This document shows positions 15,001 to 42,000 of a DNA stretch of 64,000 nt, one piece after another. The stretch's first letter is position 1. Each line of letters begins with the position of its first letter. Source of the stretch: a bacterium (lineage in GTDB: Bacteria; Zhuqueibacterota; Zhuqueibacteria; Residuimicrobiales; Residuimicrobiaceae); the NCBI GenBank assembly GCA_035353815.1, contig DAOQAG010000010.1:14054-78053 (forward strand), written 5' to 3'. The position numbers are program-made.

Positions 15001-18000
15001 GGCCATATGAGATGGCGGCCGACCGCGCCGCGTTCTGGAGGCGGGTTGTGGCGGGCTGGCTCGGGCTCTAGAGCGGGCCCTGGGGGCCCAGCGGGCGCCG
15101 GATTTCGGGGGTTGCCCGCGCTGATTTCCCCCTTGAAAAAAAATAAATAATAGTCTTTTTTCACTTGACATCGGTGATAAAATAGGCTATCTTACAGAGT
15201 CGAAACGTTTCGACAATTTTACCAGGAATGAGGCGCCAAAACCATGTAATTTATTATTTTTTGACGAATTTTAAAAGAAAATCGTTTCGATGAATGTGAC
15301 CATTCGCGAAGTCGCCCGTGAAGCGGGCGTGGCGGTTTCCACGGTCTCCCTCGTCCTCAATCGCAAGGGACGCGTCAGCCGCGAAACCGAACGCAAGGTG
15401 CTCGAAGCCATCGAAAAACTCCACTACCACCCGCAACGCTCCGCCCGCGGCCTCGTCACCCGGCACAGCGGTAACCTCGGTTTCATCCTCAGCAGCGATC
15501 ACTTTTCCAACGCAGAACCCTTTTATACCAAGATCTTCCTCGGCACGGAATTCGAAGCCCGGTCGCACGACTATTATGTGCTCCTGACCACCATCGGCGA
15601 GCAGTTTCAGGAAAAGGAGATCCCCCGCTTCCTCCTGGAAAAGAATGTCGACGGCGTCATCCTGGCAGGCACCGTGCCCGCCCGGATCATCGAATACATC
15701 AAGGAACGCGGCCTGCCCTGCGTCCTGATCGACTATCTCCCGCCCTCGGGCAACTATTCGGCCATTCTCATCGACAACGCCGACGGCATCCGCCAGGCAG
15801 TGACCCATCTCATCGAAAAGGGCCACCGCGATCTGGTCTTTGTCGGCGGCGACAGCCAGCATCCCGGCATGCGCGAGCGCCGGGATGCCTTTTGCCGGAC
15901 CATGGCCGAGCACGGCCTCGCCGCCGATGCCGGGAGGATCTGCGCCGAGGCCCTGCTGAGCGGCGCCCAGGAGGGCTTTGATGCGGCCCTCCAGGTGATC
16001 ACCAACAAGGTCAAGGTGACCGCTTTTGTCGCGGCCAACGATGCCCTGGCCAGCGGGATCCTCCGCGCCTGCCGCGACCACAAGCTGCGCATTCCGGAGG
16101 ATGTTGCCATCACCGGTTTTGACGATGTCGAGACCGCCATCACCGCCCGGCCGACGCTGACCACCCTGCACGTGCCCAAAGAGGAGATGGGAGCCCTGGC
16201 GGTCCGGCTGCTGTCGCAGATCATCGCCGGTACGGCCAGTGCCGGCACCAAAATTCTAGTTCCTGTCCGGCTCGTCTGCCGGGAGTCCACCTAATGATCG
16301 CCACCTAACCTGGAGGAGTAACCATGACACGTTGCAAACAAGTCCTGTGGGGCGCCTTGATCCTTTTTCTGGGTATGGCCCTGCAGCCTGCTCTGGCCCA
16401 GATCAATACGATCAGCAACGGCGATTTTGAAAACGCCGAGCTCCCCGCCAACTGGTACAAGGTCGATGCCAACGATGCCGAGGTCGCCTGGGCGACGGAT
16501 CAATACCGTTCACCGCAGCGCTCGCTCAAGATCTCCGAGATCAGCGGCGCCGACGCACCGGCCTGGCAATCGGCCAACATGGCCAAGCTGGAGTGGAATC
16601 CGACCACCGGCGTTCCCGCCAACATCGAGATGGTGATCGGCGGCTGGGTTAAAACCGAAAATATCAACACCTCCCCCGCCGCTGCAGCTTCCGAGATCAC
16701 CCTCAGCTTCACCTTTTATGACAAGTCCAAAAACATGATCTTCGGCCAGCCCGTCACGATCCCGATTCCCCAGAGTCAGGCCAGCATCGGTTGGACGGAG
16801 ATCAAGAACAGCGCTCCGGTCATTCTGCCGGTAGATGCCGACTCGATGATCATCACCTTTGCTTTTGGGGCCAATGCCACCGGCACCGTCTGGCTGGATG
16901 ACCTCTTTATGAAGGTGGCGCCCGGCGCCAGCGGCTGGCTCGGCGATCTCTACAATGCCAATTTCGGCGTCCCGGCGGGCTGGTTCTTCTGGAAGGACCG
17001 GATGAGCGAAGGGGAGCAGGATTATGGCACCGTCACCATCACCGACAAGTACGCCCATCGTGGAAGTTATTCGCTGCTGGTTGCCGATGATGCCGCCAAT
17101 CCCGCCGAGGTGGTCGCCATCTCCGACCGCAATGCAGTCGAGCCCGGCCGCTCCTACGGCTTCTCCGCGTGGGTCAAGCTGGAGAATACCACCGTCAATC
17201 CCAAACGGGATATCGAGCAGGCGATCTTTTTCACCATCACCTACCATTCCGGCGAGGCAGGTTGGGCCGAAGTGGGGGGCGAGGATTTTGTGGTGATCGA
17301 CCAGTCCAGGGACAATTCGGACTGGCGGCTCTACTCCTTCACCTTCAAGGTGCCGGACAATGCCTCGCGGATCTCGGTGCGCGCCCGCATGCAGCATCAG
17401 GCCACGGGCAACACCTACTGGGATGATATCCGCATCTATCCGCTCGGCATCGCCAAGGCGAACCTGAACTTTGACGAATCCCAGCAGCCCGCCAACTGGT
17501 CCGGCTATGCCCACGGCGATGCGACGGTGGAATGGGCCACAGATGTCTGGCGTTCGGCCGAGCGTTCCCTGAAGATCAGCAAAACAGCCGGCAGTGCCGA
17601 TCCCTTGTGGATCTCCGGCAACATGGCCAAGCTGCAGTGGAATCCGACCACAGGCATACCGCCCAACATCGAGATGGTGATCGGCGGCTTTGTCAAGACG
17701 CAAAACGTCAATGTCAATCCGACGAGTGCGGCGCAGGAGATTCAGCTTGCTTTCTCCTTCTATGACAAGGACAAGAACCTGATCTTCGGCCAGCCGGTGG
17801 TGCTCAAGGCGCCGCAAGCGCAGGCGAGCAGCGACTGGACCGAGATCAAGAATGAGGCGCCGATCGTGTTGCCGATCGATGCCGATTCGCTGGTCATCAG
17901 TTTCGGTTTTGGCGCGCAGGCCACCGGCACCGCCTGGCTGGACGATATCTTTATGAAGGTGGCGCCCGGTGCCAGCGGCTGGCTCGGGGATCTCTACAAC

Positions 18001-39000: not shown

Positions 39001-42000
39001 GGGCTGGACAACTCCGCTGCGGTGCGCGCCGAGGTGCGCGTCTGGCGGGATCATTACCTTGCTCTGGCCTGGCTGGAGGAGAGAACCCGGCAGGGACGGT
39101 CGGCTGCCGCCGCGTTGCAGCAGCTGAGACGGGGAAGCATTGTAGAGGCCGACAGCGTCATGCTGCGCGGGATCGAACTCAGTGCCATCCCGCTGCTGGC
39201 GCTGCGTCCCGGCCAATACAACGCGCAGGTCGTCCCGCCCTGGATCACGTTTGAATGAGAATTTCAGGTACCAACACGAGCAAATAAACGAGGTCATCCC
39301 CTCGCGGCGATACATGGACCTCGCAGGATTCTGTATCAGGTACCAACACGATTAAACCAACGAGGCGTTCGTATGTCAACTGCTGATTTCAAGGAACTCT
39401 TCATCCGTCATCCGCAGAATCCGATCATCGTCACCGCCGACCTCCCCTATCAGGCCAATACGGTGTTCAATGCCGCAGCGGCGCGGGTCTCCGGGGAAAC
39501 CGTGCTGCTCATCCGCATCGAGGACCGGCGCGGCATGTCTCATCTCACGGTGGCGCGCAGCACCGACGGGATATCGGGGTGGCGGATCGATCCACAGCCC
39601 ACATTTCCGCCCGATCCGGAGCATTTCCCGGAGGAGCTCTGGGGCGTGGAGGATCCGCGCATCACCTTCATGGAAGAACTGGGCGAGTACTACTTTACCT
39701 ACACCGCCTACTCGCAGGACGGCCCTCTGGTCGCGCTGGCCCGTACCAAGGACTTAAAAAGTTTCTCGCGTCTCGGCGGGGTGCTGCTGCCCGAGAACAA
39801 GGATGCCGCGCTCTTTCCCCGGCGCATCAACGGACGCTATGCCATGCTCCACCGCCATGTTCTGCACAGCGGCGCACATATCTGGATCGCCTTCTCACCG
39901 GACCTCAAGCACTGGGGCGACCATCAAGTTGTCATGCGCGCCCGCTCCGGCGGCTGGTGGGACGCCAACAAGATCGGCCTCTCGCCGCAGCCGATCTATA
40001 CGCCCGAAGGCTGGCTAATCCTCTATCATGGTGTACGGGTGACCGGTGGCGGGGTGATCTACCGGCTGGGACTGGCTTTGCTGGATGCGGAGGATCCGCG
40101 GCGGCTGCTGCGGCGCAGCGAGGAATGGATCTTTGGACCAACGGAACACTATGAACGCCAGGGGGATGTGGATAATGTCGTTTTCCCCTGCGGCTGGACC
40201 CAGGAGGGCGACGAGCTGCGCCTCTATTACGGCGGAGCCGACACCTGCATCGCTCTGGCCACCGCCAGCCTCCGGGAGCTGCTCGACTACCTCCGCCGCT
40301 GCCCGGAAAAATAACCACCAGCGTCAAGGGCTACCCGGGCGTGTATCGGTCTACGCTGCCGGAGGCCGCGCCTGGCCGTTACCGCCGCCGCTCCGGCCGC
40401 AAGAGATGGCCCTCGTCGGCCGCATGCCGCTTGCGATCGAGGTCGGAAAGGCTCTGCCTCACTGCCCACCAGTGAAAGCCCGGTAGAGGCGTATCGCATG
40501 GCGGCGGGGATCGCGATAGTACTCCTCGGGAGAGAGATCCAGCGCCACCCGGCGCCGCGCCGGCTGCACGGCCGGGCGGGTGGCGGCGAAACGCTTGATC
40601 ACCTCCGCGTGCGGCTTGAGCGAGCCGTCCGGCCGCACCAGCCCGAAAAAGCGCTCGTGCCAGGCCTGGTCGCAGGGCGGCCGGACATACAACCCGGGGA
40701 TATAATCGGCATAGCACCAGATCATCGCCCCAAGGGCCCCCACCTCCACCAGTTTGGGCAGCACCGCTTCGATATAGGCTGCGAGATCCTCCTCTGAGGC
40801 CATGAACTGCCGGAAGGGCTGGCCATAACGCTGCCACTCGTCGACAAAAGAGGCCTGGCCCGGCGGCGCAGTGCAGCCGCCGAACTCCTCCATCAGCGCC
40901 GGTTTGCCGCAGAGCGCGCTCGTCAGGGCGCAGAGGAAGGGAACGAAATCGCTGTCGAGCGGGCCATTGGACCAGTCCGCATACAACGGATAGCCGTGCA
41001 TCACCGGGATATCGACCTCGTCAAAGAGATCGTTCACCCGCAAGCCGTTATCCACCAGCAGGCTGGCGACGTGCAGGCCGCAGGTGACCGGATGGCCCGG
41101 ATCGATCGCACGAATGAGGCTGGTCATCCGCTGGGTCCAGGCTCTTCCCCCGGCGGCATCGGCCGGCCAGGCAAAGAGATCCGGCTCGTTGCCGAGGTTC
41201 CAGACCTCGATGGCGGGATGCTCCTTGAGGCGCCCGACCACGGTTTGCAGCTGCAACTCGGCCGCCCGCAGAGCCTGTGGATCGGTGAAGGGATTACGGT
41301 AGCCGCAGTTGACCGCGCGCCCGCCGCTGACCACCTGCCAGATGCGCGGCGGCATCGGCTGGTCCGGCTGCAGCATCCATGCAGGGGTCCACGAGGGGCC
41401 GCTCATGTGGCCGGTGAAAAAGGTCACATTGAGCCGCAGGCCCAGTCCGGCAGCGATGTCGCAGACCTGCTCGAGATGGTCGAGGGCCTTATGGTCGACC
41501 ACATCGGGAGCCGGTTGCCAGTCTTCCCACAGCAGAAAGAGACGTACCACCTCCAGACCGATCTCGCGGATGAGCGCGAATTCCTCCCGGACCTCCCCGG
41601 CGTCAAAATCCGTCCACCAGTACATGGCCTTGCGCCGCGGCCAATAATTGACGCCCAAAAGGAACGGCTGCTCCTGCATGGTTTACTCCTTTATTCTATT
41701 TACTTGTCTGTTTCCTCACCTGCCAAGCGCCGCATCCATCCTCATCGCAAACCGAACCGCCTTTTTAATGCTCCTCAATTACCCTTTGAGAGTTGAATAC
41801 AGAGATATTCCATGGCGATGGAAACAGGTTCCCCCTGCGGAAATTTTAGCGCACGGGCGATGGCCTCCGGCCCCTGCTGTTTGATCCTTTCCTCCAGTTG
41901 GCTCCGGTTGTCGAAGCTCTGGAGCGCATGAAAATCAGCGCGCCGCCGGATGCCGGCCGCTGCGAGGGCGGTAAAGCTGCGTTCGATTTTCTCTTCTTCG

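Follow-up and report, generated by a model that had tools for sequence, protein, structure and literature searches.

What takes the place of SusD in a glycan utilisation locus that encodes a TonB receptor and no SusD homologue? The question is raised by a 25-kb cluster of 13 genes (positions 15165-40314) in a stretch of 64,000 nucleotides from a bacterium of the Fibrobacterota-Chlorobiota-Bacteroidota (FCB) group placed in Zhuqueibacterota (assembly GCA_035353815.1, contig DAOQAG010000010.1, positions 14,054 to 78,053 of the forward strand). The whole of this stretch is hereafter called the window, and the genes are numbered g1 to g13 in their order along it. The original prediction for this DNA, made from the sequence alone, described a LacI-controlled cluster resembling a polysaccharide utilisation locus (PUL), in which surface proteins carry the C-terminal domains of type IX secretion system (T9SS) cargo, and suggested that it may represent the glycan-capture logic of an uncultured FCB lineage. 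Our analysis supports the central idea of this interpretation and widens it to a modular uptake unit found across several FCB phyla, which consists of the TonB receptor g3, a large all-beta surface protein of a new family, g4, and a PorV-like outer-membrane barrel, g5. We consider it probable, on balance, that the locus serves LacI-repressed glycan utilisation and that this triad is its uptake module, with g4 doing the job of SusD.

The receptor and the SusC/SusD question

Gene models were plus-strand open reading frames (ORFs), with families assigned through Pfam and NCBIfam. All 13 ORFs (15290-40314) lie on the plus strand with short spacing, and both the co-directional ORFs and nearly all the identities first listed for them were confirmed. 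The receptor gene, g3 (19918-22632, plus strand; 904 amino acids, aa; longest ORF from 19864), encodes an N-terminal CarboxypepD_reg domain followed by Plug and barrel domains. On the SusC/RagA model TIGR04056 its product scores 46.8 bits against a cut-off of 368.25, with only the N-terminal part of the model matched, and the receptors of five paralogous triads (see below) reach 70-99 bits, all below the SusC cut-off. By these sequence criteria, g3 is a TonB receptor and not SusC. No scanned ORF of the locus or its flanks matched the SusD/RagB Pfam family, so that the predicted lack of a SusD homologue holds, and the gene that follows the receptor, g4, encodes a protein with a signal peptidase I-type signal and an all-beta model that shows no SusD-like fold match. 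As far as the sequence goes, the locus lacks both defining features of a SusCD PUL. What it does have is the co-localisation of carbohydrate-active enzymes (CAZymes) with a regulator, namely, a LacI gene with a conserved operator, GH130, an (alpha/alpha)6 glycosidase and proteins with carbohydrate-binding modules (CBMs); with its TonB receptor, ATP-binding cassette (ABC) importer and glycosidases or phosphorylases, it was rightly described as a PUL-like glycan locus. The lineages that carry the triad are not themselves SusD-free, because a SusCDE operon is present in Melioribacter roseus, according to its genome paper, and a SusC/D pair in the xylan locus of Rhodothermus marinus (PMC6987092).

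A triad conserved across FCB lineages

A scan of one genome per GTDB species yielded at least 550 related loci, the best 80 of which (L007-L086) served as the set of related loci throughout. They come from Zhuqueibacterota, Calditrichota, Kryptoniota, Ignavibacteria, Marinisomatota, Rhodothermales and Balneolaceae, and the carriers include metagenome-assembled genomes (MAGs) labelled as the cultured species Ignavibacterium album and M. roseus. Searches of these 80 genomes with the 13 window proteins (tblastn) revealed near-universal colinearity in at least six FCB lineages, in the order LacI, CBM/T9SS protein, receptor, g4, PorV-like barrel, (g6), binding protein, two permeases, (g10), GH130. 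The locus can no longer be attributed to a single uncultured lineage. In all loci whose sequence extends far enough (69/69), the receptor gene immediately precedes g4, and a PorV-like gene is downstream of g4 in 71/71, at a distance of no more than 500 bp in 62 of them; a check of synteny in related MAGs, suggested at the outset, has in this way returned the order g3-g4-g5 without exception. This order survives phylum-level distances, at 42-70% identity, while g2, g6, g10, g11 and g12 are variably present.

The same arrangement extends beyond orthologous loci. Around nine distant members of the g4 family, a receptor/g4-like/PorV-like triad was found in 9/9 cases, the receptors being of the CarboxypepD_reg/Plug TonB type. 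One starch-type triad (L090) is accompanied by three GH13 genes, a TrmB regulator, a binding protein with permeases and a SurA-like peptidyl-prolyl isomerase (PPIase), and another neighbours a CBM20 T9SS protein. The xylan-type triads have as neighbours GH10-T9SS, GH67, GH43 and CBM9-T9SS (L096), GH8, GH10-T9SS, CBM4_9-T9SS, GH115 and CE15 (L097), or xylose isomerase and xylulokinase (L092), and many canonical T9SS cargo genes lie near the paralogous triads. The 13-gene locus first taken as the unit therefore shrinks to an essential core, the receptor/g4/PorV-like triad that recurs in starch and xylan loci, while g11 is not conserved. Next to one paralogous triad (L091, 1-15503), a minus-strand TonB receptor gene and a gene for a 1317-aa protein without Pfam domains stand back to back with the full plus-strand triad; if this 1317-aa protein is g4-like, a single genome carries adjacent paralogous units.

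Pairwise identities indicate how the triads evolved. When a xylan-type triad from KSB1 (Zhuqueibacterota) is compared with other xylan-type triads and with the mannoside-type triads of KSB1, respectively, the receptors are 60-66% versus 36-38% identical, the g4 proteins 51-55% versus 36-37%, and the PorV-like barrels 69-70% versus 50-51%. Thus, all three proteins group according to the type of locus they come from and not according to the organism, and whole triads were therefore duplicated and diverged as units. These observations bear on the simplest alternative, that this is an ordinary TonB-receptor carbohydrate locus in which T9SS cargo and a PorV paralogue are merely co-regulated, the triad being inherited gene order and nothing else. 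T9SS cargo genes are indeed very abundant, with four in the window and 77 canonical tails in the 80 loci, and descent alone can preserve gene order. However, such an explanation has to contend with an order that is held over phylum-level distances while other genes of the locus vary, with the same order in all nine paralogous triads despite their different neighbours, with the joint divergence of the three proteins by type, and with a g4 tail that forms a conserved class of its own (see below). We regard inherited order as a distinctly unlikely explanation.

A census of extra genes in the orthologous loci (85 additional ORFs) found Zn-dehydrogenases, PPIases and Laminin_G_3 T9SS proteins. Two of these classes are absent from the window locus: Zn-dependent sugar/alcohol dehydrogenases (ADH_N/ADH_zinc_N/Glu_dehyd_C), which account for 15/85 of the extra ORFs, and Laminin_G_3 T9SS proteins of ~1050 aa, which account for 11/85.

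g4, an all-beta surface protein with a distinct tail class

The partner gene, g4 (22647-25811, plus strand), encodes a 1054-aa all-beta surface protein of a new family, predicted to be exported by Sec, which we characterised through structure models and through tests of its tail with hidden Markov models (HMMs). The signal is of the signal peptidase I type, without a lipobox. No Pfam family matched, and the g4 profile gave no sequence match among all PDB chains. The protein is far from rare: a sequence search returned more than 4000 relatives, all unnamed and without Pfam domains, with relatives more than 50% identical over the full length across KSB1, Calditrichota and Ignavibacteria, and a profile search of 1.84 billion representatives returned 7648 family members, 1144 of them at E <= 1e-30 and many of them 1100-1600 aa long.

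In the models, an N-terminal supersandwich is followed by acidic Ca-type loops, FN3-like domains, a variable module (aa 691-940) and a C-terminal domain (~955-1054). The first full-length model was all-beta and mediocre (predicted local distance difference test, pLDDT, 71; predicted template modelling score, pTM, 0.5), with fold matches mostly to generic FN3 or Ig arrays; its tail forms a beta-sandwich, and the model as a whole matched PorZ (5m11, probability 1.0) and PorU (6za2). When aa 1-710 were re-modelled with a 105-sequence alignment (pLDDT 88, pTM 0.84), the only fold matches were to the non-catalytic N-terminal supersandwich of GH94, GH149, GH161 and GH116-type enzymes. Fold searches with the full-length and the aa 1-710 models returned no catalytic domain, no (alpha/alpha)6 or TIM barrel and no SusD-like fold.

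Profile comparisons connect the tail with secretion. An HMM built only from the 77 canonical T9SS tails of the 80 loci matched 79/80 g4 tails, with a median of 23 bits and 16.9 bits for g4 of the window, whereas reversed controls reached at most 12.8 bits, and alignment of the g4 tail profile to the canonical T9SS tail profile (hhalign) gave 96.4% with an E value of 1.3e-9. These comparisons show that the g4 tail is related to the T9SS type A C-terminal domains. The tails of g4 paralogues score 125-180 bits on an HMM of g4 tails as opposed to 18-31 on the canonical-tail HMM; by this measure, g4 tails form their own, much more conserved class. One g4 paralogue bears the NCBI name 'T9SS type A sorting domain-containing protein'.

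Between paralogues, the C-terminal domain is the most conserved region of g4 (45-60% identity), and the least conserved is aa 691-940, with 31% identity among orthologues and ~20% among paralogues. The possibility that paralogues differ in an N-terminal head was ruled out by hmmsearch: the N-terminus is shared, and the differences consist of insertions and the 691-940 region. In a Marinisomatota-specific paralogue (L062, 10892-13633), which shares its locus with a full g4, a right-handed beta-helix is fused to the ~470 N-terminal residues of the g4 architecture and to a canonical C-terminal domain of type A.

Does g4 capture glycans, or does it cut them? The latter possibility has g4 as a secreted enzyme of a new family (an endo-glycanase, lyase or other surface hydrolase), with g5 as its private T9SS carrier and the receptor working alone, as in proteobacterial loci with TonB-dependent transporters (TBDTs). 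The high conservation of g4, with its many invariant Asp, Glu and Trp residues, would suit an enzyme, as would the absence of a recognised endo-enzyme gene from the window operon, the resemblance of the N-terminal domain to one confined to glycoside hydrolases and phosphorylases, and the fusion of part of g4 to a beta-helix in Marinisomatota. Yet the glycoside hydrolase domain that g4 resembles is the non-catalytic supersandwich, unaccompanied by an (alpha/alpha)6 or TIM barrel, and the most conserved parts of g4 are common to paralogues from starch, xylan and mannoside loci, which is hard to square with one catalytic specificity. Furthermore, xylan- and starch-type loci already have T9SS endo-enzymes of their own, GH10 and GH13, and an enzymatic g4 would leave unexplained its strict adjacency to, and co-diversification with, the receptor. 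We consider g4 as an enzyme unlikely, though deserving of attention.

The PorV-family barrel

Downstream of g4, the 337-aa product of g5 (25842-26855, plus strand) is a 14-strand barrel of the PorV/PorQ family, with 240.6 bits on NF033709 (cut-off 90). It falls below the cut-offs of the equivalog models for PorV (NF033710, 89.5 bits; cut-off 250), PorQ (NF033711, 102.5; 220), PorV2 (NF052325, 99.2; 325) and BamG (NF053685, 21.3; 250). The barrels of five paralogous triads behave alike, with 198-236 bits on NF033709 and failure on all four equivalogs.

In known T9SS systems, a protein with a C-terminal domain is taken from the translocon by its cognate PorV-like barrel, which afterwards serves as its surface anchor; PorZ/PorQ and PorU/PorV are documented cases in which the C-terminal domain is kept (PMC10202324, PMC10994853). 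As in PorZ-PorQ and PorU-PorV of Porphyromonas gingivalis, a FadL-like barrel of the PorV family here accompanies a surface protein that ends in a T9SS-type C-terminal domain, and the g4/g5 pair resembles the type B cargo of Flavobacterium johnsoniae with its PorP/SprF-like barrels in that the barrel gene adjoins the cargo gene, as seen here in 71/71 related and 9/9 paralogue loci, with g4 and g5 co-diversifying. Unlike the members of these carrier pairs, g5 is not PorV, PorQ or PorV2 by curated models, the g4 tail is neither typical type A, being below the cut-off, nor known type B, and both genes are tied to a TonB receptor and catabolic genes rather than to secretion or attachment machinery or to gliding. 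Another precedent for a FadL-family barrel that anchors a surface protein in the FCB group is BamG-BamH, an FCB-wide pair in which a FadL-family 14-strand barrel holds a surface-exposed protein with a carbohydrate-binding fold beside another large barrel (PMC12611786). However, BamH is a lipoprotein and not T9SS cargo, the function of the pair is outer-membrane protein biogenesis, and g5 is remote from BamG, at 21 bits against a cut-off of 250.

These resemblances suggest two further roles, that g5 is a FadL-type channel through which some hydrophobic or amphipathic compound passes, or that g4 and g5 are housekeeping parts for T9SS attachment or outer-membrane biogenesis, in the manner of PorZ/PorQ or BamG/BamH. 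The membership of g5 in the FadL-like PorV/PorQ family, its weak matches to Toluene_X and BamG, the weak match of g4 to the PorZ tail and its fold matches to PorZ and PorU all agree with such roles. By contrast, g5 and its five paralogues stay below the PorV, PorQ, PorV2 and BamG cut-offs, and several paralogous triads reside in substrate-specific loci, the present one behind a LacI gene with a conserved operator, whereas one would expect a housekeeping gene to be present once per genome and free of control by a sugar repressor. Roles of this kind appear highly improbable. The simplest reading is instead that g5 is the dedicated carrier and anchor of g4 and that g4 selects substrates for its partner, the receptor, replacing SusD in function but not by descent; we favour it because of the strict adjacency of the three genes, their co-diversification, the private conserved tail class, the variable module and the lack of a catalytic domain.

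Regulation of the locus

The cluster begins with a putative sigma-70-like promoter (15165-15193, plus strand; TTGACA, 17 nt, TATCTT; 10/12 consensus matches). Directly after the -10 element comes a predicted LacI-type operator, the perfect 16-bp palindrome GTCGAAACGTTTCGAC (15199-15214), which has no other match in the window even when up to 3 mismatches are allowed. We searched 40 related loci for its 12-bp core, CGAAACGTTTCG, with up to 2 mismatches in the region from -260 to +10 of the LacI gene, and found it in 23/40, at a density of 2.40 sites per kb compared with 0.043 elsewhere in the loci, a 56-fold enrichment. The regulator itself, g1 (15290-16294, plus strand; 334 aa; PF00356 63.9 bits, Peripla_BP_3 131 bits), has counterparts upstream in 41 related loci at 36-52% identity. 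The makings of a LacI regulon are present, since g1 combines an HTH_LacI domain with a sensor domain resembling periplasmic binding proteins and the promoter on which it would act carries a palindromic operator. Given an operator at the promoter and a motif enriched upstream of orthologous regulator genes, LacI control of at least the first promoter is well supported as a prediction, in keeping with what had been proposed.

Further along, a terminator- or attenuator-like hairpin (19865-19896, plus strand; 14-bp GC-rich stem followed by a T-run; ~-38 kcal/mol) fills the 60-bp gap between the g2 stop and the real g3 start. Hairpins of 12-17 bp, differing in sequence, lie upstream of the receptor gene in all 51 related loci examined, a count that comes without a control set. 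By terminating or attenuating transcription, the g2-g3 hairpin may set how much g2 is made relative to the triad. Within the 172-bp g5-g6 gap lies a putative promoter-like site (26880-26907, plus strand; 10/12 consensus matches); adjoining it is a 55-aa ORF (26864-27031; L001 11023-11190), called by gene callers on identical contigs and absent from the genes first listed for the locus.

The remaining intergenic distances are 29 bp (g1-g2), 6 bp (g2-g3, with the uncorrected start of g3), 14 bp (g3-g4), 30 bp (g4-g5), 7 bp (g6-g7), 117 bp (g7-g8), -4 bp (g8-g9), -4 bp (g9-g10, or ~122 with the likely g10 start), 10 bp (g10-g11), 30 bp (g11-g12) and 114 bp (g12-g13). Several start/stop couplings had been noted originally; the coupling is robust for g8/g9 only, and g3, g10 and g12 probably start later than their longest ORFs. 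The most likely starts, at 19918 for g3 and at 32817 for g10 (466 aa), are those of independent gene calls on identical contigs, and that of g12 is uncertain because of a tandem repeat at its 5' end. In-frame tandem repeats occupy the exact 5' ends of both g12 (37781-37910, 21/42 bp, 3-6 copies) and g10 (32707-32817, 30 bp, 3.6 copies), where they introduce several further candidate Met starts (MRQVKPTMRHVKLK repeated) ahead of the lipoprotein signal peptides.

Accessory genes, substrate and genomic surroundings

Between the regulator and the triad, g2 (16324-19857, plus strand) encodes a 1177-aa T9SS cargo protein with three CBM_4_9 modules (92 bits), an unassigned middle part and a type A C-terminal domain; the tail scores 20.4 bits on PF18962 (cut-off 27) and 27.5 on TIGR04183 (cut-off 23). 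Searches gave no catalytic match for g2, and counterparts with ~30% identity occupy the same position in 32 loci. Past the triad, g6 (27028-29541, plus strand; 837 aa), present in 24 related loci, encodes an (alpha/alpha)6 glycosidase- or phosphorylase-like protein with a signal peptide and distant GH94, GDE_C and MGH1-like matches. The ABC importer comprises the sugar substrate-binding protein g7 (29549-30868, plus strand; assigned by family models; 63 loci, 43-55% identity) and the permeases g8 and g9 (30986-31888 and 31885-32694, plus strand, with a 4-bp overlap; ~60 loci, 50-71% identity); there is no ABC ATPase gene in the locus. The product of g10 (32817-34217, plus strand; longest ORF from 32691, inside the 30-bp tandem repeat), a probable lipoprotein of 466 aa, belongs to no family, scores 200 bits against PDB 7TEM, the uncharacterised 'putative exported protein YPO2471', and is present in 36 loci. 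A DNRLRE/CBM96 protein of 1178 aa with a T9SS-like tail is encoded by g11 (34228-37764, plus strand; TIGR04183 22.5 bits, cut-off 23); the tail scores 82 bits on our canonical-tail HMM, of which g11 is itself a seed. Only one other related locus has g11, which by this distribution is a lineage-specific accessory. A SurA-like PPIase, probably a lipoprotein, is encoded by g12 (37795-39258, plus strand; Rotamase_2 32.5 bits; start uncertain owing to the 21/42-bp repeat), and Rotamase_2 proteins recur in related and paralogous loci.

The last gene, g13 (39373-40314, plus strand), encodes a cytoplasmic GH130 protein, a probable beta-mannoside phosphorylase, without a signal peptide (PF04041 213.7 bits, cut-off 26). 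It resembles beta-1,4-mannoside phosphorylases, its nearest solved relatives being TM1225 (1vkd; 223.6 bits), UhgbMP (188) and RaMP2 (187), and it is below the NCBIfam equivalog cut-offs. Because of this gene, of the second GH130, GH5 and GH2 (GH5 and GH2 few in number) that recur in orthologous loci, and of GH38 next door, the substrate is probably a beta-mannoside-containing glycan, although this is the weakest part of our account.

The locus is flanked by genes for GH3, a carboxylesterase, a TIM-barrel glycoside hydrolase, GH38 and a 2878-aa T9SS adhesin. GH3 and the carboxylesterase lie upstream, and a TIM-barrel glycosidase (weak GH42/GH2_C), a methyltransferase and a GH38 alpha-mannosidase follow the locus immediately on the minus strand (40459-45821). 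These upstream and downstream genes may belong to the same mannose-related regulon, but no operator match accompanies them. Farther away, the 2878-aa ORF (53893-62529), with at least 11 SdrD_B repeats, DUF11 and a canonical T9SS tail (PF18962 38.6 bits), encodes a giant T9SS adhesin; the organism therefore uses type A C-terminal domains. At a window G+C content of ~62%, a stretch at ~46-54 kb stands out with 0.47-0.52; its minus-strand genes (~46000-54000) encode a carbamoyltransferase, a GDSL acylhydrolase, two methyltransferases and several proteins without Pfam domains, and it looks like a horizontally acquired cassette for glycan or lipid modification. The window contains no tRNA genes or Rfam elements. 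Identical copies of the g5 protein are found on 10 metagenome or MAG contigs, and in the six places examined it is surrounded by the same locus. Candidate division KSB1 supplies the best named relatives of g4, and the closest species representative is Ca. Coneutiohabitans thermophilus (68%; Ca. Zhuqueibacterota, FCB group), which points to a Zhuqueibacterota (KSB1)-like host.

A proposed mechanism and its precedents

We propose that, when no inducer is present, g1 would bind the palindrome that overlaps the promoter. Upon induction, the T9SS cargo proteins g2 and g11 would be displayed or released, and the polymer would be bound and probably cut. Oligosaccharides would then enter through an outer-membrane module of three co-evolving proteins, g3, g4 and g5. 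In this module, g4, exported by Sec and then by T9SS, would have g5 as its dedicated carrier, which would recognise the atypical conserved C-terminal domain and tether g4 beside the receptor, much as PorQ holds PorZ and SprF-type barrels hold type B cargo. T9SS dependence of g4 and retention of its C-terminal domain are, in this scheme, expected, and retention finds indirect support in the high conservation of that domain between paralogues. Within g4, the conserved scaffold at the N-terminus would provide the docking surface for the transporter or the barrel, and the hypervariable module, aa 691-940, would bind a specific glycan, giving g4 a presumed glycan-binding role. In the periplasm, g6 and g10 would trim the oligosaccharides and g12 may chaperone assembly; g7-g9 would import the products, which the cytoplasmic GH130 would phosphorolyse.

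Several points weigh against this proposal. The physical association of g3, g4 and g5 is one that we infer, and the conservation of g4 across loci could equally fit an enzymatic or a structural role. The prediction that surface components carry T9SS tails stands in part: g2 exceeds the TIGR04183 cut-off and g11 falls just short of it, but the tail of g4 matches neither TIGR04183 nor PF18962 and, among curated T9SS models, only the PorZ tail (E 0.034), its link to T9SS being drawn by profile comparison. T9SS core genes are absent from the window. Some paralogous triads (L091, L093, L094) have no CAZyme neighbours, and the module is therefore maybe not glycan-specific. The assignment of a beta-mannoside substrate is weakened by the CBM4_9 modules, which usually bind xylan or beta-glucans, and by family scans that recognised no endo-mannanase in the operon. 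One unmodulated transcript is unlikely because of the hairpin after g2 and the promoter-like site in the g5-g6 gap; the two speak against a simple LacI-controlled transcript and make the single transcription unit that had been supposed doubtful. Finally, we found no description of the triad in open-access papers and preprints, and an earlier description elsewhere is possible.

How does the arrangement compare with known systems? In the SusC/SusD PULs of Bacteroidota, too, a regulator and a TonB importer with a CarboxypepD_reg-type extension and a partner gene directly downstream are clustered with surface binding proteins and enzymes, periplasmic glycosidases and an inner-membrane importer, and paralogous importer-partner units, whose partners co-diversify with the importer, stand beside enzymes for different glycans. 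Here, however, the receptor is outside SusC/RagA (47-99 bits against a cut-off of 368), the partner is an all-beta Sec/T9SS-type protein of ~1050-1600 aa rather than a lipoprotein of the tetratricopeptide-repeat type, a PorV-family barrel makes a third obligatory gene, and regulation by LacI is combined with inner-membrane uptake through an ABC importer. The carbohydrate utilisation (CUT) loci of Proteobacteria, of the Xanthomonas type, share with the present locus the lack of SusD, a TonB receptor, glycosidases, an inner-membrane transporter and a LacI-type repressor. We know of no T9SS cargo, PorV-family barrel or obligatory receptor-adjacent partner in proteobacterial CUT loci.

The closest parallel in gene order is the xylan locus of R. 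marinus (Rmar_1067-1081), which runs LacI, Por-tailed GH43-CBM6, Por-tailed CBM4-CBM4-GH10 (Xyn10A), TonB receptor, Por-tailed hypothetical protein, hypothetical protein, the last two of which were left without interpretation in the original report (PMC6987092). In gene order it mirrors g1-g5, with Xyn10A in the position of g2 and Rmar_1071 and Rmar_1072 as candidate homologues of g4 and g5, and it differs in having a SusC/SusD pair with an extracytoplasmic function (ECF) sigma/anti-sigma system. The module goes unmentioned in the papers that describe the genomes of M. roseus, C. abyssi and Zhuqueibacterota.

T9SS-secreted enzymes within PULs are known already, as in the case of F. johnsoniae ChiA. 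The novelty here lies in the proposed replacement of SusD rather than in T9SS cargo as such. In a broader formulation, which we put forward tentatively and at slightly less than even confidence, the triad would constitute a third architecture of TonB-dependent nutrient capture beside stand-alone TBDTs and SusCD, in which a T9SS-delivered g4 with a new class of tail is held by its own PorV-family carrier as a substrate-selecting lid or feeder, with substrate-specific paralogues across non-Bacteroidia FCB lineages.

Tools that predict PULs key on SusC/SusD pairs, as does much of the present knowledge of glycan foraging in the FCB group. If the proposal is correct, the glycan capacity of Ignavibacteria, Calditrichota, KSB1/Zhuqueibacterota, Marinisomatota, Kryptoniota and Rhodothermia, groups that are abundant in sediments, hot springs, digesters and the ocean, would be under-called, and a TonB receptor gene followed by a g4-family gene and then a PorV-family gene would provide the genomic marker by which to recognise it. 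T9SS would acquire a new role, the building of nutrient importers, such that T9SS secretion would be a prerequisite for glycan import in these bacteria, and a new class of C-terminal domain with its cognate carrier would be added to the type A/PorV and type B/PorP-SprF schemes. Thousands of "hypothetical proteins" of ~1100 aa without Pfam domains would thereby gain a testable function.

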